Shown here: positions 32,699-55,583 of the stretch, in pieces
Numbering within the stretch: the first letter of the stretch is position 1
How the letters are laid out: every line of letters starts with the position of its first letter
NCBI GenBank assembly: GCA_016186625.1
Contig: JACPLG010000003.1
Location: forward strand, 9,645 to 73,644
Reading direction: 5' to 3'
Length of the DNA: 64,000 nucleotides
Source: Candidatus Levyibacteriota bacterium
GTDB taxonomy: Bacteria; Patescibacteriota; Microgenomatia; Levybacterales; UBA12049
Program-made: the position numbers and the translations under genes
Notes under the pieces: generated by a model
The model's database searches: none
Told to the model about the DNA's origin: nothing
What the model saw: only the letters and a program-made list of their open reading frames with translations

Positions 32699-33688
32699 CT
32701 ATTCAACGTTGGTTGAGCCTTTGTATATTTTTGGCGATAGCCAATCCGGAGGGGCTTCCTGCCTGCCGGCAGGCAGGTCATCTTTTTTTTGCTCCCTTGG
32801 AAATTCCCTTATTGATTGTGGCGAAGAGGAACGAGCTACTTGCGATGCGGGTGTTTGAACTGCTTGCGGTGAGACTGATCTGCCCATCCCCGGTCTTGCA
32901 GGAGGGCTGGGATATCCAAAAGATTGCGGGCTAACTCTTTGTGTCATTGGTTGGGTCCTTGGACTAACACTTTCTCTAAATGCACCATTTCTAAGAAGAA
33001 TTCCGGTCATTTCAAATGCGAGTGAGCTTGTTTGCGGACTTTGAAAATCCGCTGTTGCCGAAACTATTCCATCCATTAAATTCTGAGAAATATCAGGATC
33101 CATGGGATATGCAAGGGTCACCAAGATATTGGCGATTTGCTCAGAAATAGACGATGCAGTCTGACCAATTACTACAATATCTCCAAATCCTTCATTATTA
33201 CCAAATTTGTCAATATTAACAATTGTTGTATCCTTAAGTCTGTCTATGCTAAATTGGGCTGAAAGTTCCGAGAGTCTTTTGACTCCTACTGCAATAAGTA
33301 CTTGTGGGACTTCTCCTGATCTTCTGAAAAGAACATCTTTTTCTCCAAAAGAAAGAGAATTTTCCTTAGGTTTGACAATAATGTTTAGAAGTCCACTTTC
33401 AAGAGTGTAAGAAACTTTTCCAATCTCATCTCCTTGATAGGGAAACGAAACCACTAAATCTCCACTTTTTGATTCGAAGTAGGGCTTAACCTTGTCTATT
33501 CCGACTAAATTTGATACCTCTACCAAAGGCTCCCTAGAGGAAATTACTGATACGTCTTTACCTAAAGAGCTAAGCGCAAGATAAAGTGCGAGTGCTCCTC
33601 CCATTTCATCAAGGCTATAACCAGATCCAACAACAATAGCAAAACTTGCTTTTGTATCAAAAATTTCTCTTAATCTTTGGAGTTCCAT
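32699..33688 (-). CDS. DHH/DHHA1-family NrnA-like protein with degenerate DHH motif and low-complexity C-terminal tail
   Basis: Conserved position between infB and rpsO. FAIVVGSGYSLDEMGGALALYLALSSLGK aligns to the NrnA N-terminus but lacks DHH. The tail contains the 20-bp palindrome. Confidence 0.5.
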   Translation of the reverse strand: MELQRLREIFDTKASFAIVVGSGYSLDEMGGALALYLALSSLGKDVSVISSREPLVEVSNLVGIDKVKPYFESKSGDLVVSFPYQGDEIGKVSYTLESGLLNIIVKPKENSLSFGEKDVLFRRSGEVPQVLIAVGVKRLSELSAQFSIDRLKDTTIVNIDKFGNNEGFGDIVVIGQTASSISEQIANILVTLAYPMDPDISQNLMDGIVSATADFQSPQTSSLAFEMTGILLRNGAFRESVSPRTQPMTQRVSPQSFGYPSPPARPGMGRSVSPQAVQTPASQVARSSSPQSIREFPREQKKDDLPAGRQEAPPDWLSPKIYKGSTNVE

Positions 33689-33784: not shown

Positions 33785-35236
33785 TTAGCTATGGCATATT
33801 ACCATATCTCCAATATTAAAGTCAAGGGATGGACCAATAATTATTCCTGCTTCCCCCCCCGCCTCCACTTTTGATTTTTGCTCTTTACCCTGTCTTACGG
33901 AATTTATATGGCCACCTCCAATAACTTCTTCTCCCCGTTCAATTCTTACCTTATCACCCTTGGCAACTCTTCCTTCAAGAACTTTTACCCCCATAACGGT
34001 TTGTTTGTCAAATGGAAAACTTGCCAAAATTTTTGCAGTGCCATAAATCTCTTCCAAAAGCGATAGCTCTTTTCCTTCAACTACATCTGCAATTTCATCA
34101 AGCATTTCATAGATGACTGTATAATTCTTCACCAAAACTTTCTCATTTAAAGCCAATTTTGCAATATCAGGCTTTATTTTTATATTAAAACCTAAGACGA
34201 GCGCGCCTGTTGACTTGGCTAACAAAATGTCTGCTGAGGTGATATCCCCAGTTTTTTTAAGGATCACGTTTATTTTTGGAGGAAGAGATGTGTAAATAGC
34301 CTCAAGCGAACCAAATGTATCTGCAACCAAAATAAGAGAAACTACCCCCTCTTCATTTCTTACTGGTCTTTTTTCTGTTTTTTCTTCCTCCGCCGCCTCA
34401 GAGCCTTTGTTAACAACACTACCTACGCCGGGCACTCGCTCAAAGCCTAATACCTCAACTGCTTCTCCTATACTAGCTTCATTTATCTGTTTTCCTGAAT
34501 CTGATATCAAGCTTCTGACTTTTCCGGTGACCTCTCCTGTTGTAATCTGGTCTCTAACTGAAATTCTTCCGTTTTTGACAACAAGTGTTGCTTTTGCGCC
34601 CGCTTTTGGATCTTGTTTTGATTCTATAACTATAGCTTTTAATGGAGAACTCAAACTTACATTCTCTTCTGGGTGTAAATCTGAAACCAATAAAATTAGA
34701 TCCAATAACTCTTTGATATTTGTATTCTTCTTAGCGGAGACTTCAATTACAGGTACGTCCCCACCAAGTCCCTCAATTAAAACTTCTTCTCCGGCCAATT
34801 GTTTTTTTGCCTTTTCTGGATTTTTATGTGGATCGTCTGACTTGGTTAAAACAACAATATAAGGAATTTTTGAGGCTTTGAGTAAACTTATACTTTCTTT
34901 TGTCTGGGGCATTACACCATCAACCGAGGAGACTATTAAAAGACCTATGTCTGCGGCCTGAGCTCCACGTGAACGCATCTTTGCAAAAGCCTGATGCCCT
35001 GGAGTATCAATAAAAGTAATCCACCTTTTTTTGCCTTCATGCTTGTCCTGAGCAGAGTCGAAGGATTCCACCTCAACGCTTGAGGCGCCGATTTTTTGTG
35101 TAATTCCGCCATGCTCCCGCTGCGCAACCCCGGTTTTTCTAATAGCATCAAGAAGTGTCGTTTTACCGTGGTCAACATGACCCAAAACTGCTACAACTGG
35201 AGGGAATTGCTGAATTGTTTTTTCGTTTTTTTCCAT
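33785..35236 (-). CDS. infB: Translation initiation factor IF-2 (short form, G domain to C-terminus)
   Basis: VVAVLGHVDHGKTTLLD (G1); DTPGH (G3); C-terminal beta-barrels. Confidence 0.9.
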   Translation of the reverse strand: MEKNEKTIQQFPPVVAVLGHVDHGKTTLLDAIRKTGVAQREHGGITQKIGASSVEVESFDSAQDKHEGKKRWITFIDTPGHQAFAKMRSRGAQAADIGLLIVSSVDGVMPQTKESISLLKASKIPYIVVLTKSDDPHKNPEKAKKQLAGEEVLIEGLGGDVPVIEVSAKKNTNIKELLDLILLVSDLHPEENVSLSSPLKAIVIESKQDPKAGAKATLVVKNGRISVRDQITTGEVTGKVRSLISDSGKQINEASIGEAVEVLGFERVPGVGSVVNKGSEAAEEEKTEKRPVRNEEGVVSLILVADTFGSLEAIYTSLPPKINVILKKTGDITSADILLAKSTGALVLGFNIKIKPDIAKLALNEKVLVKNYTVIYEMLDEIADVVEGKELSLLEEIYGTAKILASFPFDKQTVMGVKVLEGRVAKGDKVRIERGEEVIGGGHINSVRQGKEQKSKVEAGGEAGIIIGPSLDFNIGDMVICHS

Positions 35237-42277: not shown

Positions 42278-42564
42278 TTTTCTACATCTTTTGTAGTTTG
42301 ATTTACCAGAAGCGACGTTAGAACAAAGGTTTTATAACTATGCAATTTCTTAACCTCACTATTTATTTTTTCAAAATTTTCCGCAACAGAATCCATTATT
42401 AATAAGATCTCCTCCGAAGATTTGATTTTCTTCTCCCAAAGAAATGATGAAGAGACAGGAAGTTTTTTTGCGCAGACTATTAATTTTTCCTTAAGAAGAG
42501 TATTGGCAATTTTGTCCGCTTCCTTCTCATTTGCACAAGTCAAAAGAAGAACGATCATTTGCAT
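42256..42564 (-). CDS. cutA: Divalent-cation tolerance protein CutA
   Basis: CutA1 fold signature (LLTCANEKEADKIANTLLKEKLIVCAKK...SSFLWEKKI). Confidence 0.7.
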   Translation of the reverse strand: MQMIVLLLTCANEKEADKIANTLLKEKLIVCAKKLPVSSSFLWEKKIKSSEEILLIMDSVAENFEKINSEVKKLHSYKTFVLTSLLVNQTTKDVENWAKKEL

Positions 42565-42570
42565 GCGCCA

Positions 42571-42576
42571 ATTATA
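42571..42576 (-). promoter_or_regulatory. -10 hexamer TATAAT 6 nt upstream of the cutA ATG (leaderless-type)
   Basis: Minus strand reads tataattggcgcATG. Confidence 0.4.
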
Positions 42577-42623
42577 ACAAAAGTATTTTAGAAAATTTGT
42601 TATAAAGTTTTCTCAGTACAACA

Positions 42624-42728
42624 CTACGCTATAGCATATCATTGTAATTTGATATTTTATGTTTAGATTGATCTAAAACGAGAAAATTAAATCATCACAA
42701 ATTTTGCTCGAGCAAAATTTTCGTGGAG
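42624..42728. repeat. Copy 1 of a ~105-bp direct repeat (about 93% identical to 44110-44213); contains the perfect 22-bp palindrome AAATTTTGCTCGAGCAAAATTT (42699-42720)
   Basis: Aligned by eye: 7 mismatches over ~105 bp; the 49-bp core is identical. Confidence 0.85.
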
Positions 42729-42740
42729 TTAAAGGAGAGT

Positions 42741-43247
42741 TTACCCTCTTATTTTATCTGCAAGCTTTGCTAATTCTTTATCTGGAGCTCTTTTGTAGTC
42801 GTGTGAAGAGATATATCCTTCATATTTTTCAAAATATTTATCTACATTAGATTTAATTTCTTGCCATTTTTTCATATCAGCGGTTCCGTGCATTGGGAAA
42901 AGTTTGGCATGAACATGATCCACTCCAAAACCTTCAAAAATCATTCCAGTTCTACCAACTCCTTCTAATTTATTGTCGAGAAGCCTTCCAACTTTCTGTG
43001 AAGCCAAAACAAGATCAATCAAAACATTTCTAGGTAAATCAAAAGCATAGCTTGCATAATGTTTTTTAGGAATAACAACAGTGAAACCTTTTGTGTTGGG
43101 AAAAATAGAAAGGAAGGCTATATGTTTTTCATCTTCCCAGATTTTATGGGATGGGGCTTCTCCATTTACAATCTTACAAAAAATACAATCTTTCACCTCG
43201 CCAATTATAGCCCTTCGGCTTCGCTCAGGGCAAGCACCCCACTTCAC
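42741..43247 (-). CDS. HIT (histidine triad)-like nucleotide hydrolase, H-x-H-x-K variant; the true start may be the GTG at 43196
   Basis: CIFCKIVNGE...GVDHVHAKLFP is a HIT-like motif with Lys at the third His position. The N-terminal 17 aa of the track ORF come from a GC-rich leader segment. Confidence 0.65.
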   Translation of the reverse strand: MKWGACPERSRRAIIGEVKDCIFCKIVNGEAPSHKIWEDEKHIAFLSIFPNTKGFTVVIPKKHYASYAFDLPRNVLIDLVLASQKVGRLLDNKLEGVGRTGMIFEGFGVDHVHAKLFPMHGTADMKKWQEIKSNVDKYFEKYEGYISSHDYKRAPDKELAKLADKIRG

Positions 43248-43300: not shown

Positions 43301-44047
43301 TTATTCGAAGAGCGGATGTCCTGGAAGAATTATCCTATCCCCTGTTTTTAGTTGATTTTTAATCCTAGTATAAGCCGATTGGTTGAGAAATCTAAGACTC
43401 TTGTAAATCATCTCTTGATCAATAGTCTTTCCATTTCTTACATCCATAGCATGATTAATAACTATTGATCCATTAACATCAAGGAATTTTAATTTTTTAG
43501 ACTCCACGTATATATCTTTATGAGTTAGCGGGAATTTACCAGACTCCAGTATCACCAAAGCTCTTGCGGCAAATAAAACAGCTTTTGAAAACTGTATGGA
43601 TGCTGTGACTAAATCATTTTTTCTGGCGGAAAGTAAAGCGCCAAGTGCGTAGGATGTTTCAAAGATAATTACTTCAATTAAATCAGATAGTTTAATTTGA
43701 GGAGACTTTAGCTTTCGTATAATATTTTCTCCTGCAATTGTAATTGATTCTTCAACCAATTCTTTTAAATAAACTGCCTTAGGAAAAGGAGTATCAATTA
43801 TGTACCGCTCAATTTCTTCCAAAACAAACGAGTAAATATTAATATTTGGATTGTTGTGAAGTTGGGCTAGCTTAATACGCTCCCATCTCTTAGTTTTACT
43901 AAAAATAACTCCGACTTCATAATCACTGTCCTCTTTAAAATCATCTCTGGCTCTAGATCCATAAACAAAAATTGAAACAGGCTTAGCTTCTTTCTCAATT
44001 TTATCAATTACAGAAAGTATATCTTTTGGAAAATCTGTTTTTTTCAT
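43301..44047 (-). CDS. Pol-beta superfamily nucleotidyltransferase (MNT-like) with C-terminal helical domain
   Basis: IFVYGSRARDDFKEDSDYEVGVIF carries the GS...D.D NTase motif. Start placed at the ATG directly after TATAATTGGCGA; the track ORF extends to 44128 through the repeat. Confidence 0.65.
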   Translation of the reverse strand: MKKTDFPKDILSVIDKIEKEAKPVSIFVYGSRARDDFKEDSDYEVGVIFSKTKRWERIKLAQLHNNPNINIYSFVLEEIERYIIDTPFPKAVYLKELVEESITIAGENIIRKLKSPQIKLSDLIEVIIFETSYALGALLSARKNDLVTASIQFSKAVLFAARALVILESGKFPLTHKDIYVESKKLKFLDVNGSIVINHAMDVRNGKTIDQEMIYKSLRFLNQSAYTRIKNQLKTGDRIILPGHPLFE

Positions 44048-44053
44048 TCGCCA

Positions 44054-44059
44054 ATTATA
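44054..44059 (-). promoter_or_regulatory. -10 hexamer TATAAT 6 nt upstream of the nucleotidyltransferase ATG (leaderless-type); same architecture as cutA
   Basis: Minus strand reads tataattggcgaATG. Confidence 0.4.
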
Positions 44060-44109
44060 GCAGAAGTGCTTGAAACATTTGTCTTGGGAGACTTTCTCTT
44101 GGTACAAGC

Positions 44110-44213
44110 CTACGCTATAGCGTATCATTGTAATTTTATATTTTATGTTCAGGTGGTCTAAAACGAGAAAATTAAATCATCACAAATTTTGCTCGAGCAA
44201 AATTTGCGTGGAG
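44110..44213. repeat. Copy 2 of the ~105-bp direct repeat; palindrome at 44184-44205
   Basis: See copy 1. Confidence 0.85.
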
Positions 44214-44501
44214 GGAGAATAGATTTATTAAATACTTCAATACTTTAAAGTAATGAAGTATTCCATTTATAAGTTCCTTTTTTGTGGAATGGTTAAGCGG
44301 TATAATATAGGTATGGATTTACTAAAACCAATTAAAGTCGATGGTGTGCACCCCAGGTTTACACCCCGGGGGTGGATTTTCCTTTACACCCTAGGATTGA
44401 TAATATAGAAAGAATTAGAACCAGCCTTTTCTTTTCGCCCTCAAACTTTCTGAATCTTCCTTCCCACTTGGAATGTGGGAAGGTAGTTTTGAGTACTAGT
44501 A

Positions 44502-49985: not shown

Positions 49986-50717
49986 TTACCATCCGCGTGC
50001 TACTTCTTCTATTAAATTTCCAAAATATCTAACAGTTGGTACTATATAAGTGTAGTTTAAACGAGTTGGTCCTATTACTCCAATTTCTCCTCCAGTCTTT
50101 GCTGGAGTAATGTAATGCCTAAACACAAATCCGTATGGTCCAGAGAGTTTTGGGCCAAGTTCTTCTCCCATAAGAACTTGAATGTCTTCATCCTGACCTG
50201 CCGCTTCAAATAATGGCCTAAAACATTCAAATTCATCAATCGCTGAAAGAAGAGTTTTTGTTAGGTCTATGTCATAAAACTCTGGCATGTCCAGAATATT
50301 TGCATAGCCTGAAATGAAATATTCTCCTCCATCAGTTGCTGCAATTGCAACTGCTCCGGTTTTATTGGCAAGTGCCCGTGTAACTTCCTTGAGAAATTCA
50401 TGTTCCTTATCTCTAATATCCCAAACTTTTTCCTTCATTGAAACTTCTTCAGCAACTGAAAGTTCTTTCTCTTTCATCAGCTGCTTTACATAAAATTTCA
50501 TGGCAGCTGGTGTTGGAACTCTGCCTGATGAAATGTGCGTTTTCCTTAAGTATCCGTAGTTGGTCAAACGAACCATCTCATTTCGGATTGTTGCAGGAGA
50601 AGCTGACAATGAGTGTTTTTTCTCAAGCGTTTCGCTTCCCACTGGCTCTGCTGTTTCAATGTACTCTTCAATTAAAGATTTTAAAATCTCAATCTGCCTC
50701 TGTGTTAAATCATGCAT
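49986..50717 (-). CDS. hrcA: Heat-inducible transcription repressor HrcA
   Basis: LTQRQIEILKSLIEEYIETAEPVGSETL...ASPATIRNEMVRLTNYGYL is the HrcA wHTH N-terminus. Confidence 0.85.
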   Translation of the reverse strand: MHDLTQRQIEILKSLIEEYIETAEPVGSETLEKKHSLSASPATIRNEMVRLTNYGYLRKTHISSGRVPTPAAMKFYVKQLMKEKELSVAEEVSMKEKVWDIRDKEHEFLKEVTRALANKTGAVAIAATDGGEYFISGYANILDMPEFYDIDLTKTLLSAIDEFECFRPLFEAAGQDEDIQVLMGEELGPKLSGPYGFVFRHYITPAKTGGEIGVIGPTRLNYTYIVPTVRYFGNLIEEVARGW

Positions 50718-50792
50718 AGTTCCAACTAATAACTTCTAATTCCTAACTACTAATAGTTTATTTTTGGCTTATCAGAAATTAGTTGTTAGATG

Positions 50793-50832
50793 TTAGCAGT
50801 TGTCATTTTGACGATTCAAAATGACTTAGCAG
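50793..50832. promoter_or_regulatory. Inverted repeat GTCATTTTG-acgatt-CAAAATGAC flanked by direct TTAGCAG half-sites, 85-115 bp upstream of hrcA; CIRCE-like but non-canonical
   Basis: Read directly. The CIRCE consensus is TTAGCACTC-N9-GAGTGCTAA; only the TTAGCA half is shared. Confidence 0.3.
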
Positions 50833-50859
50833 TAATATACCACGTCTGCTAATTCATGT

Positions 50860-51060
50860 CAAGGAGGAAGATGCCAGACGGTATCTTCCGACGCAGACCC
50901 CGCATAAACGCCCCTTCGACGCGAGGACGCCACAGTGGGATACCCCACGTGGTTTCCCATAGACCTCGGGAGAAGGTAAGTTTTGTGCGGGGTCAAGGAA
51001 ATTTAAAGCCGAGCGGTAAGATATGGCGGGTCAAGACCCCGAGCTATAATGTTATACTAG
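50860..51060 (+). ncRNA. GC-rich, hairpin-rich ~200-nt region (candidate structured RNA or 5' leader); identity unresolved
   Basis: Local GC is far above the window average. Hairpin GGAAGA-tgccagacggta-TCTTCC and the palindrome CCACGTGG are present. The only ORF here (114 aa, R/P-rich) looks non-coding. Confidence 0.2.
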
Positions 51061-51064
51061 ATTT

Positions 51065-51430
51065 GTGGAGAAAACTAGGAGAAAAGTTCGGCCTATTGCC
51101 AGAAAAAGGCATAACTTTGTGTATCTTCTTCTTGCGATTTTATTTGCTATCGCTACTGGCTATATATTATATAACTTCTCACCGAGTCACGAGTTTATGA
51201 TTGCGAACATTGGAATACCGATTCTTCCAATTTTCTTTTTGTCCTTCGGTCTTCTTATTTTTTCAACCACAACTTTTCTTTTTATTCAAAAAAATCATGG
51301 GGTTATTATTACACTCCTTATCAGCGGGTATTTACTAATGAGAATAATTGGCCTCACCCACTGGCTTTTTTTAATTTTAACCCTCGCACTTTTTTTTACC
51401 ATTGAACTCTTCATCCTAAAGAAAAAATAA
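51065..51430 (+). CDS. Small polytopic membrane protein (121 aa)
   Basis: ORF track; 3-4 hydrophobic helices. Confidence 0.5.
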   Translation: MEKTRRKVRPIARKRHNFVYLLLAILFAIATGYILYNFSPSHEFMIANIGIPILPIFFLSFGLLIFSTTTFLFIQKNHGVIITLLISGYLLMRIIGLTHWLFLILTLALFFTIELFILKKK

Positions 51431-51600
51431 AACCTATAATTGGTAATACTTTTGCTATATATCCGTGGACTAGTCTATGAAACTATTAGTTACATTAGAC
51501 TACTAGCCTCAGTTCTGTTAAAATTCAATCTAGCCTCTACTAGATTTATCTGTTACAGATTTTAGTTATTAGCAGTTAGTTGTCAGTAGTTGGCATAACT

Positions 51601-53022
51601 ATGCCTAAATTTTATATAACAACAGCTATTCCTTATGTAAATGGTAGGCCTCATATTGGTCATACTTTGGAATATTTTCAGGCTGATGCAATTAAAAAAT
51701 ATAGACAGCTTTTGGGAGATGAAACTCTCCTTCTTTCAGGAGCAGATGAAAACGCGCTCAAAAATGTTCAGGCAGCTGAAAAAGAAGGCTTACCCATAAA
51801 AGAATTCTTGGATAAATATTCCAAAATTTGGAAAGACACATATGGGATTGTTGGGGTTAAGCTTGATGTTTTTCAAAGAGGATCTGATGAAGAAAAACAC
51901 TGGCCGGGAGTACAAAAACTTTGGAAACTTTGTGAAGAATCAGGCGACATTTACAAAAAATCATACCAAGGACTTTATTGTGTCGGTTGTGAGGCTTTTA
52001 AACTTGAAAGTGAACTGGTAGATGGTCTTTGTTCGATTCATCGAACAAAACCGGAAGAGATTTCTGAAGAAAATTATTTTTTCAGACTTTCGAAATATCA
52101 GGAAAAGTTAATAAAATTGATAGAATCCAATACGTTACAAATTATTCCTTCAAACAAAAGAGCTGAAGCGCTATCTTTTATAAAACAAGGGTTGGAAGAT
52201 TTTAGTGTTTCAAGAAGCAATGAACGAGCAAAAGGAGTAGGAGTACCGGTACCGGGTGATCCAAATCAAAAAATTTACGTCTGGTTTGACGCTCTAACTA
52301 TCTATATGACCGGAATTGGTTTTGGAGCGGACGAGAAAAAGTGGAAGTATTGGTGGCCGGCCGATGTTCATGTAATTGGAAAAGATATTAATAGGTTCCA
52401 CACTGTCTATTGGCCGGCAATGCTTCTTTCTGCTAGGTTTCCCCTTCCAAAACAAATTTTAATCCACGGGTTTGTGAATGCTAAGGGTGGAGAGAAATTT
52501 TCTAAATCTTTAGGTAATGCACCTGATCCCAAAGAAGTAATTGATAAATATGGAGTTGAGGCTGTCCGTTATTACATGCTTGCTCAAGTGCCAATTGATT
52601 CTGATCACGATTTTACATATGACCGATTTGAAGAAGTTTATAATGCGGATTTGGCAAATGGCTTGGGGAATTTAGTGGCAAGGGTTGCCAAACTTTGCGA
52701 GAAGATCAAACTTAATACACTTCCTAAACCAAAACTAAGTGAATCGTATAAACAGAAATTTGAACAATATAAATTTAACGAACAATTAGTAGAAATTTGG
52801 GCAAGGATTTCAGAAATTGATCGAGAGATTGAAAAAGCCAAACCCTGGGAAATTGATGATTTGAATAAACTTCAAGGATTACTGCAAAACTGGGTAGAGG
52901 AAATTAATCAAATCGCATTGGATCTAAAACCTTTTCTCCCAAATACGTCTAAAAAAATTCAAAAATTATTTGTCCAACCAAAAATTCAACCCATCCCCCC
53001 TCTTTTCCCAAGAATTCAATAG
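51601..53022 (+). CDS. metG: Methionine--tRNA ligase (short form)
   Basis: MPKFYITTAIPYVNGRPHIGH (HIGH motif); GGEKFSKSLGN (KMSKS). Confidence 0.9.
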   Translation: MPKFYITTAIPYVNGRPHIGHTLEYFQADAIKKYRQLLGDETLLLSGADENALKNVQAAEKEGLPIKEFLDKYSKIWKDTYGIVGVKLDVFQRGSDEEKHWPGVQKLWKLCEESGDIYKKSYQGLYCVGCEAFKLESELVDGLCSIHRTKPEEISEENYFFRLSKYQEKLIKLIESNTLQIIPSNKRAEALSFIKQGLEDFSVSRSNERAKGVGVPVPGDPNQKIYVWFDALTIYMTGIGFGADEKKWKYWWPADVHVIGKDINRFHTVYWPAMLLSARFPLPKQILIHGFVNAKGGEKFSKSLGNAPDPKEVIDKYGVEAVRYYMLAQVPIDSDHDFTYDRFEEVYNADLANGLGNLVARVAKLCEKIKLNTLPKPKLSESYKQKFEQYKFNEQLVEIWARISEIDREIEKAKPWEIDDLNKLQGLLQNWVEEINQIALDLKPFLPNTSKKIQKLFVQPKIQPIPPLFPRIQ

Positions 53023-54755: not shown

Positions 54756-55583
54756 ATGATAGATGTACACTCTCATTTAAATTTCAAGGCATTTGCCAAC
54801 GACTTTGATCAAGTTATCAAGCAAGCTGAAAAAGACGGAGTTAAAACAATAATAAATGTTGGAACTTCAATAGAAACTAGCCTTAGGGCGGTGGAACTGA
54901 CAAACGCATATCACAACTTATATGCAATAGTTGGTATCCACCCCCATCATGCTGACCTGCCTGCCGGCAGGCAGGCAAACTCTCAAGAAGGATGGGAAGA
55001 AAAACTTTTCAAGCTTGCAAAATCTTCAAAAAAGGTTATCGCGATTGGCGAAATTGGATTAGATTATTATTCTTATAAATCAAACGGCATTGTTGATCCG
55101 AAGACTCAAAAAGAAGTTTTTATCAAACAAATTGAAATCGCTCACAAACTTAAACTCCCGCTTCAAATTCACAACAGGCTTGCAGGAAACGATATTATTG
55201 AAATAATAAATAATAAACTGTCACTAATAAATAATGGCGGTATGTTCCACTGTATGTCGGGTGATATCCCGTTTCTGAGACAAGTACTTGGTCTTGGATT
55301 TTATGTGGGTTTTGATGGAAATATTACTTATGAAGGCATTGCAAAAGGAGAAACAACGCCGCTTCCCGATCTTGTTAGGCAAACTCCAATCGAGCGAATT
55401 GTTACGGAGACTGACGCGCCGTTTTTAACTCCCGAGCCCCACAGAGGTGGTAGAAATATTCCATCTCATGTTATAATTGTGGCAGAAGAAATTGCCAAAA
55501 TTAAGGGTTTAGACTTCAAAGAAGTCGAGGCTGCAACAACCCGGAATGCCAAAGATCTGTTCAAACTAAACCCTAGACGCTAG
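54756..55583 (+). CDS. tatD: TatD family metal-dependent hydrolase (DNase), carrying the 20-bp palindrome in-frame
   Basis: MIDVHSHLNF (HxH); AIGEIGLDYY; FHCMSG; ETDAPFL. All are TatD motifs. Confidence 0.85.
   Translation: MIDVHSHLNFKAFANDFDQVIKQAEKDGVKTIINVGTSIETSLRAVELTNAYHNLYAIVGIHPHHADLPAGRQANSQEGWEEKLFKLAKSSKKVIAIGEIGLDYYSYKSNGIVDPKTQKEVFIKQIEIAHKLKLPLQIHNRLAGNDIIEIINNKLSLINNGGMFHCMSGDIPFLRQVLGLGFYVGFDGNITYEGIAKGETTPLPDLVRQTPIERIVTETDAPFLTPEPHRGGRNIPSHVIIVAEEIAKIKGLDFKEVEAATTRNAKDLFKLNPRR

Follow-up and report, generated by a model that had tools for sequence, protein, structure and literature searches.

An invariant 20-nt palindrome inserted in frame in two genes of a Levyibacteriota genome: probable solo copies of a hairpin linked to tRNA-adjacent mini GIY-YIG nucleases

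Ssn proteins are single-domain GIY-YIG nucleases of ~90-100 aa (typically about 94 aa) that bind the hairpin repeat NTS/SRM and cut adjacent single-stranded DNA (ssDNA); this repeat flanks its own Ssn gene in 71% of the homologues, usually on both sides (NTS-ssnA-NTS), is scattered in hundreds of copies, of which 2% are located in genes, and has an oriented GTC-type flank, the SRM search pattern being HGTCWY...RNCYNB (Chenal et al., Nat Commun 2025, PMC11893778). tRNA genes, the Candidate Phyla Radiation (CPR) and Bacteroidetes are unmentioned in that paper (PMC11893778). The Ssn nuclease with its NTS hairpin is the closest known system to the element analyzed here, the 20-mer CCTGCCTGCCGGCAGGCAGG (hereafter P), which is present in two exact copies in a 64,000-nt stretch of the genome of a Candidatus Levyibacteriota bacterium, a member of the CPR (contig JACPLG010000003.1, positions 9,645 to 73,644; this whole stretch is referred to as the window). 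Both copies are probably solo copies of a sequence-invariant hairpin that is the cis hallmark of tRNA-adjacent mini GIY-YIG nucleases, and they look like dispersed nuclease-linked hairpin repeats tolerated by chance inside proteins. A preliminary description of the window had reported the palindrome as an insert shared by two unrelated genes; the observation is confirmed, and it extends further than that first reading. Literature searches on palindromic inserts and on GIY-YIG/tRNA/CPR yielded nothing specific beyond the Ssn work, and we found no publication carrying either the 20-mer or LPAGRQ, the peptide encoded by it. The features of the window considered below are the following:

32699..33688, minus strand: host gene 1, DHH/NrnA-like protein of 329 aa, from the list of open reading frames (ORFs)
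32758..32777, no strand assigned: P solo copy 1, exact match; with the extra base 32757, a 21-nt insertion
54756..55583, plus strand: host gene 2, TatD-family hydrolase of 275 aa, from the ORF list, with Pfam PF01026 homologues
54956..54975, no strand assigned: P solo copy 2, exact match, 20/20 identical in the orthologous TatD genes L121 and L122
54976..54992, plus strand: stretch following copy 2 with a 1-nt excess that restores the frame; removal of P yields D-K-L

P is a perfect palindrome, and its G+C content of 80% compares with 37% for the window; as ssDNA, it is predicted to form a hairpin of about -9 kcal/mol, with a stem of 8 bp and CCGG as the 4-nt loop. Exact matching confirmed that the two 20-bp sites are identical and that both contain GCCGGC, as originally noted. 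There is no third copy in the 64-kb window even when up to 3 mismatches are allowed, and none appeared in 100 dinucleotide-preserving shuffles of the window (chance expectation 0). An Rfam scan detected an RNA family at neither of the two P sites; its sole match in the window was a DUF3800-IX RNA at 7169-7240 on the plus strand, scoring 60 bits where the gathering score is 36.8. Both ORFs read D-LPAGRQ in the same frame, in agreement with the initial translation, and TGA directly precedes each copy on the coding strand. The two genes do keep their reading frame, but not by way of the plain 20-nt in-frame insert that had been proposed: because 20 nt do not make up whole codons, the frame is preserved only thanks to one added base that accompanies each copy.

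Host gene 1, the homologues of which bear the JGI name nanoRNase/pAp phosphatase, reads ...KKDDLPAGRQEAPPDW around copy 1, where P adds DLPAGRQ to a poorly conserved C-terminal tail, directly before the conserved APPDWLSPKIYKGSTNVE end. Among 120 relatives, about 110 are without the insert, with a tail of the form REFPREQKKD[ED]APPDWL, and five sequences show DDLPAGRQ[ED]APPDWL. At the nucleotide level, the junction is GATGA[P]AAGCCC in the window versus AAAGACGA followed by AGCTCC (that is, GACGA/AGCTCC) in the insert-less gene of L387, which amounts to a 21-nt insertion. The insertion is bracketed by a 2-nt direct repeat, GA...GA, that would permit its precise loss. In a homologue with 66% protein identity to the window gene (L384), P is conserved 20/20 and the flanks have diverged, and decayed inserts of the same length occupy the same codon in L388 (TTACCGATAGATAAGCAAG, LPIDKQ) and L386 (CAGGCTTTGGGCAGACAGG, QALGRQ), the decay in these other lineages taking the form of drift towards A+T or loss of one arm. 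Copies are bimodal, either perfect or heavily decayed. In a neighbor-joining tree of the NrnA-like proteins, the five alleles with intact P are dispersed among sisters that lack the insert, a patchy pattern that reflects either repeated gain at one site or an ancient gain followed by many losses. Lateral transfer of alleles is an unlikely source of this pattern because the flanks beside P differ between the P-bearing alleles.

In the TatD gene, which reads ...HPHHADLPAGRQANSQEGW around copy 2, the insert corresponds to residues 67-73 in a surface loop following the HPHH motif. Of the 120 closest TatD proteins, 116 lack the insert and have GIHPHHAD-K-[VL]xxGW, and only 4 related sequences contain DLPAGRQ[AV] at the HPHH-loop site; in TatD as in the NrnA-like protein, the insertion amounts to 7 residues. 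Deletion of exactly the 20 nt of P recovers a ghost D-K-[VL], as in insert-less TatD, in 3 of the 4 P-bearing genes, and the distance from the base after P to TGG is 17 nt in all four of them versus 16 nt in the insert-less genes of L124 and L125. Since the stretch after P is 1 nt longer than in insert-less TatD, the frame has been mended by one added base. The TatD gene of L123 contains another P-like unit, of 21 nt, which is nested at the center of P after CCTGCCTGCCG and leaves both outer halves intact. In the AlphaFold2 model of the window TatD, residues 67-73 fall within a low-confidence loop (61-79) between a predicted strand (55-59) and helix (80-89), with pLDDT below 50 at residues 69-71. 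The alignments of orthologues, most of which are without the extra residues, establish both copies as insertions and support the preliminary interpretation. In the three P-bearing TatD genes that were compared, synonymous third positions are only 36% identical and P is 20/20 in all; the chance of six synonymous third positions all remaining unchanged in TatD is about 0.002.

The exact 20-mer was searched for in a collection of one genome per species, and it matched at least 120 genome stretches from many phyla, so that the objection that only the two window copies exist fails. Among the matches listed, the hosts comprise many CPR lineages, Bacteroidota, Omnitrophota, Planctomycetota, Bdellovibrionales (Bdellovibrionota), Gammaproteobacteria, Thermodesulfovibrionales, Elusimicrobia, Verrucomicrobia, Ignavibacteria and Chloroflexi. 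They include cultured isolates of Bacteroidota (Winogradskyella echinorum, Flagellimonas yonaguniensis, Longitalea luteola, Flavivirga sp., Aquiflexum lacus, Aestuariivivens sediminis and Agriterribacter humi), and exact copies are also present in long-read (Nanopore, PacBio) assemblies, in a curated complete WWE3 genome and in 35 viral-contig stretches; none was found among the 72,556 plasmids of PLSDB. The flanks of P copies are unrelated to one another. When the loop was left free in the search pattern, it was CCGG in 42 of 56 matches, with most of the others one base off, and when the ends were left free, they were CC...GG in 42 of 55 matches; it follows that the 20-mer is the conserved unit, a master sequence shared across phyla. 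The half-sites have A directly before P in 41% of cases and T in only 9.5%.

Elsewhere, P copies are mostly intergenic. Within long real genes, P is read almost exclusively as LPAGRQ, which answers the question of whether the copies stay in frame; such insertions are found in GatB (L104), FtsK (L013), ribosomal protein S6 (L047) and membrane glycosyltransferase-like proteins, and a dTDP-glucose dehydratase-like (RfbB-like) gene of L021 carries a nested double P insert. Because only one frame is used where P lies in real genes, and an extra base restores that frame, P in genes is, as far as can be read from these sequences, translated as part of the protein. Removal at the RNA level, by a mini-intron or ribosomal bypass, is ruled out by the same restriction to one frame and the compensating base.

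Several observations made alongside this survey concern other repeats. A single 29.5-kb viral contig of 60-66% G+C (represented by L146, L153 and L154) contains P in exact form at least 6 times, in several cases as part of longer repeats, and no GIY-YIG ORF was detected in this contig. Other perfect GC-rich palindromes, TCCGCCAGCTGGCGGA and TCCCGATAGCTATCGGGA, occur near P in other genomes (L015, L016, L032, L011; L052, L062), and L112 contains at 1890-2199 an array of GGGACAGGTCGCGACCTGTCCC with a period of about 44 nt.

The link between P and a nuclease emerges from the analysis of 80 GIY-YIG relatives that were fetched from metagenomes by protein similarity only (at least 495 of the 600 candidate stretches were confirmed relatives). 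In 58 of these 80 (72%), P or near-P, in some cases with 1-2 mismatches, lies no more than 160 nt upstream of the GIY-YIG domain, and among the 70 P-like copies in GIY-YIG loci, 51 are at most 50 nt upstream of the domain and 8 at most 50 nt downstream. An intact tRNA is located within 150 nt downstream of the domain in 59 of the 80 relatives, and the upstream flank repeats the 5' part of this tRNA. In the 45 modules that were mapped in detail, P resides within an orphan copy of the 5' part of the downstream, intact tRNA gene, such that the order is tRNA nucleotides 1..x, P, tRNA nucleotides x+1..y, GIY-YIG ORF and intact tRNA, the latter beginning within ~15 nt of the ORF stop or overlapping it. 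The tRNAs involved are those for Arg, Leu, Phe, Lys, Asn, Gly, Val, Met and Ser. Within the orphan tRNA, P is mostly inserted at positions 21/22 (the usual site) to 23/24, where the end of the D-loop abuts the 3' strand of the D-stem, and in some cases at 14/15 or 31/32; A precedes it nearly always. In L037, L106, L118 and L157, P lies in a truncated 5' tRNA copy 23-29 nt upstream of the GIY-YIG ORF, which is followed by the intact tRNA, and comparison of each locus with its own intact tRNA reveals an exact 20-nt insertion without duplication (in L118, GGCGAA/P/ACTGG in the orphan copy versus GGCGAAACTGG in the intact one).

The proteins encoded by these modules are single-domain GIY-YIG proteins of 75-83 aa, with PF01541 as the only Pfam match and with the UPF0213 proteins 1zg2 and 1ywl, and SLX1, as the nearest solved structures. 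They cluster by tRNA type, and the median identity of the P-linked members is 54% with a minimum of 40%, P being invariant throughout. Where the C-terminal motif K[ST]GxG[KR] is present, P is found in 53 of 70 modules, and where the motif is absent, in 0 of 8; motif-less KSAAGRR proteins are accompanied at the same place by a different hairpin, CCGAACGTACCGTTCGG.

Further tRNA- or rRNA-associated arrangements were noticed in the course of this mapping. A gammaproteobacterial metagenome-assembled genome (MAG; L039, 880-1060 and 1120-1270) contains an orphan tRNA-Val fragment with another GC-rich palindrome, CCCGCCCGTACCGAACGGGTACGTTCGGGCGGG, at the D-loop position beside a GIY-YIG remnant, and P is carried by a 3' tRNA remnant further downstream. 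In two viral contigs (L127 at 8616 and L150 at 2284), P occupies the variable-loop position of tRNA-Met-like sequences, where, if these tRNAs are still functional, it might serve as a long variable arm, and a related GIY-YIG ORF lies inside the 23S rRNA gene of a Saccharibacteria MAG (L093, 4797-5018), where P is not adjacent.

The sites of insertion show a junction preference: P is located exactly at the loop-stem junction of a hairpin of at least 5 bp at 12.6% of sites versus 3.2% of controls (p = 1e-6). About 8 of 167 P copies are nested at the center of another P-like palindrome, and self-nesting at the center of P itself was identified in L018, L042, L021, L028 and L123. No target-site duplication was found in the orphan tRNA copies or in TatD, and at the NrnA-like site the repetition does not exceed 1 nt (A).

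The P module and Ssn are alike in that a small single-domain GIY-YIG protein is encoded beside a hairpin-forming repeat of 20-50 nt, in 71% of cases for Ssn and 72% for P, and in that the same hairpin is scattered elsewhere as solo copies. We also recovered NTS-flanked Ssn-type ORFs from viral contigs, one of which (L316, 7823-8134) shows 34% identity over 70 aa to the P-linked protein, and both proteins have the UPF0213 structure 1zg2 as their nearest. The two also differ. P is a symmetric, perfect palindrome that lacks an oriented GTC-type flank and does not fit the SRM pattern; it is one-sided, lying upstream inside an orphan tRNA fragment, with the gene tied to tRNA genes; it is identical across phyla, whereas NTS-like repeats are variable; and, as against the 2% of NTS copies in genes, it stands in frame in housekeeping genes. 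The C-terminal motifs also differ, being REKYLKSGxG[KR]E in the P-linked proteins and REKxxKKWxRxWKxxLIE in Ssn. This kind of nuclease-plus-hairpin system has recently been described, and the perfect 20-nt unit, its identity across phyla, its residence at tRNA genes and its in-frame survival in housekeeping genes are the unusual features that P adds.

Other known systems each share one or two traits with P and fail the defining ones. The repetitive extragenic palindromes (REPs and REPINs) and their RAYT genes resemble P in that a short hairpin repeat, dispersed in numerous copies, flanks a single nuclease-type gene dedicated to it. However, RAYT is an HUH/Y1 transposase and the P-linked gene encodes a GIY-YIG nuclease, and REPs are species-specific, extragenic and carry a GTAG or CGTC tag, whereas P spans phyla, enters genes and has no tag, the flank statistics showing neither GTAG nor CGTC at its ends but only the above-mentioned A at position -1. 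The Rickettsia palindromic elements (RPEs) invoked in the preliminary description are about 100-150 bp long and known only from Rickettsia. The analogy is apt insofar as they too are palindromic elements located in frame in unrelated protein genes and tolerated as an extra loop peptide; it does not extend to size, taxonomic range or sequence, given that P has 20 nt, occurs in many phyla (CPR, Bacteroidota and others), is invariant and requires a compensating base for the frame. Homing GIY-YIG endonucleases, such as I-TevI and SegB of the T4 tRNA cluster, are likewise encoded in or beside a conserved gene that is kept functional, and their lineages track the target gene as the module clades sort by tRNA type, but they exceed 200 aa and possess a DNA-binding domain, in contrast to the 75-83 aa of the module protein, which is a catalytic domain only; we know of no conserved hairpin partner of these enzymes. 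The GC clusters of yeast mitochondria are, as P, GC-rich palindromic mobile mini-elements of an AT-rich genome that sometimes lie inside coding sequences; unlike P, they are organellar, longer, fall into several sequence classes, show target duplication and are not known to have a linked GIY-YIG mini-nuclease. Finally, miniature inverted-repeat transposable elements and other transposons with terminal inverted repeats generate target-site duplications, which sets them apart from P.

By analogy with Ssn and NTS, we infer that the mini GIY-YIG nuclease would recognize the P hairpin in ssDNA and cleave at stem-loop junctions after A. The released hairpin might then be re-ligated, or copied, into cuts and sealed by host enzymes, so that solo copies would be written into new sites as exactly 20 nt, sometimes 21, without target-site duplication; in genes, a copy would survive only if an additional base brought the frame back and LPAGRQ fell in a loop or tail. 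The loop of P would itself be a preferred target, and a new copy nested in the loop of a resident P, followed by collapse of the duplicated arms, would refresh the resident copy. Such nesting and collapse would account for perfect copies at old sites, for nested intermediates as in L123 and for the decay of copies that have ceased to be targets. A further-reaching version of this scheme, which we regard as distinctly unlikely, is that P is the smallest mobile element with an autonomous partner, namely a 20-nt ssDNA hairpin cut out and written in by a GIY-YIG enzyme consisting of the catalytic domain only, with the tRNA arms flanking the hairpin guiding homing to the matching tRNA gene and with nest-and-collapse maintaining its identity.

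Several results weigh against the assignment of the window copies to such nucleases. The 64-kb window contains neither a GIY-YIG ORF nor a tRNA gene despite its two solo P copies, and viewed from the side of P, only about 9 of 121 8-kb loci (among the matches listed) hold a GIY-YIG ORF. The co-variation of the C-terminal motif and the hairpin could be confounded by taxonomy. Minimum free energy folding of the flanks indicated no significant preference for insertion into hairpin loops in general (15.6% versus 12%, p = 0.25), the stricter test for junctions alone being significant. Furthermore, GIY-YIG enzymes hydrolyze DNA and do not ligate it, so that insertion requires host functions.

Alternatively, P could be an independent mini mobile hairpin, favoring tRNA-like hairpins and moved by host repair or some other enzyme, which accumulates beside GIY-YIG genes solely since the orphan tRNA fragments created by these genes are the only D-arm targets in which insertion does no harm. 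Most P copies are without a nearby GIY-YIG ORF, P enters the loops of other hairpins as well as its own center, and other GC-rich palindromes are found at the same D-loop position in the modules of L039, L255 and L259. We nevertheless consider this unlikely, if deserving serious attention, inasmuch as the 72% occupancy of orphan copies would demand a very high hit rate, P is found in 0 of 8 modules of other GIY-YIG subfamilies though orphan copies are present there, and Ssn is an already known case of a nuclease that has its own hairpin as a partner. P could also be filler captured at DNA breaks, that is, a blunt duplex or hairpin ligated or copied into double-strand breaks, including breaks made in tRNA genes by homing nucleases and breaks at palindromes. 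This would fit the insertion of exactly 20 nt without target duplication and nesting at the palindrome center, a known fragile point where hairpins are cleaved by SbcCD. It would also agree with the position of P in the orphan tRNA, 8-30 nt before the junction with the ORF, a possible cleavage site for a homing enzyme of the GIY-YIG type. The source of such an abundant 20-mer would, however, be unaccounted for, and end joining is, to our knowledge, not known from many CPR genomes; this explanation, which overlaps with the nuclease-linked hairpin more than it excludes it, appears very unlikely.

A different possibility is that P is a signal useful to the host, such as a protein binding site, a tag of the DNA-uptake type or an RNA hairpin, which is maintained by selection and moved between phyla by gene transfer. 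The conservation of P 20/20 at orthologous sites while the surrounding synonymous sites diverged speaks for selection, and parS sites exhibit comparable invariance across phyla. We rate this as highly improbable given the low density of P (2 copies per 64 kb), the inconsistent position relative to genes, and the presence of copies in junk orphan tRNA fragments, nested within one another and freely decaying in some lineages (LPIDKQ, L388). The remaining concern, that an identical short palindrome across unrelated assemblies resembles technical sequence, has a negligible probability: the chance expectation is 0 copies, the frame is maintained and decayed versions exist, and an artefact of assembly or adapter origin is effectively refuted by the cultured isolates, the Nanopore and PacBio assemblies, the curated complete genome and independently sampled orthologues that carry P at the same codon. 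Weighing these alternatives, we favor the interpretation of P as the hairpin partner of the tRNA-adjacent GIY-YIG nucleases as the probable one.

Other features of the window and its surroundings were noted in passing. The cumulative GC skew reaches its minimum at about 50000-52000 of the window and is flat afterwards, so this region may include the replication origin, in which case both P-bearing genes would be co-oriented with replication. An IF2-like ORF (33785..35236, minus strand) contains at 35041-35062 the GC-rich TTCGACTCTGCTCAGGACAAGC, which encodes FDSAQDK in a variable segment before ITFIDTPGH, and the similar strings SGQA, SAQDK and RQAQDK recur in the tails of NrnA-like homologues (P0157, P0161, P0163, P0170); strings of the FDSAQDK type may represent another family of GC-rich mini-inserts. 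An intergenic stretch of ~185 nt is duplicated at 42558-42741 and 44041-44226 with 75-89% identity, and each duplicate contains the AT-rich perfect palindrome AAATTTTGCTCGAGCAAAATTT, which may belong to a shared operator/promoter region. A stretch overlapping the first ~6 kb of the window (L382, 494-4807) encodes a 1076-aa MmeI/Eco57I-type restriction-modification protein and, after it, a LexA-like repressor and a small protein of the HNH type.

The invariance of P, set against a partner protein that drifts to 40% identity, points to very strict base-specific recognition by an enzyme of only 75-83 aa, a property relevant to tools that act on single-stranded DNA. For annotators, LPAGRQ is a useful flag, and its presence or absence can serve as a marker for lineages. 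Given the exact 20-nt boundaries, the lack of target duplication, the self-nesting and the datable orthologous sites in essential genes, the chemistry of insertion is directly testable, and P thereby bears on how the widespread nuclease-paired hairpin repeats, such as REP/RAYT and NTS/Ssn, multiply.

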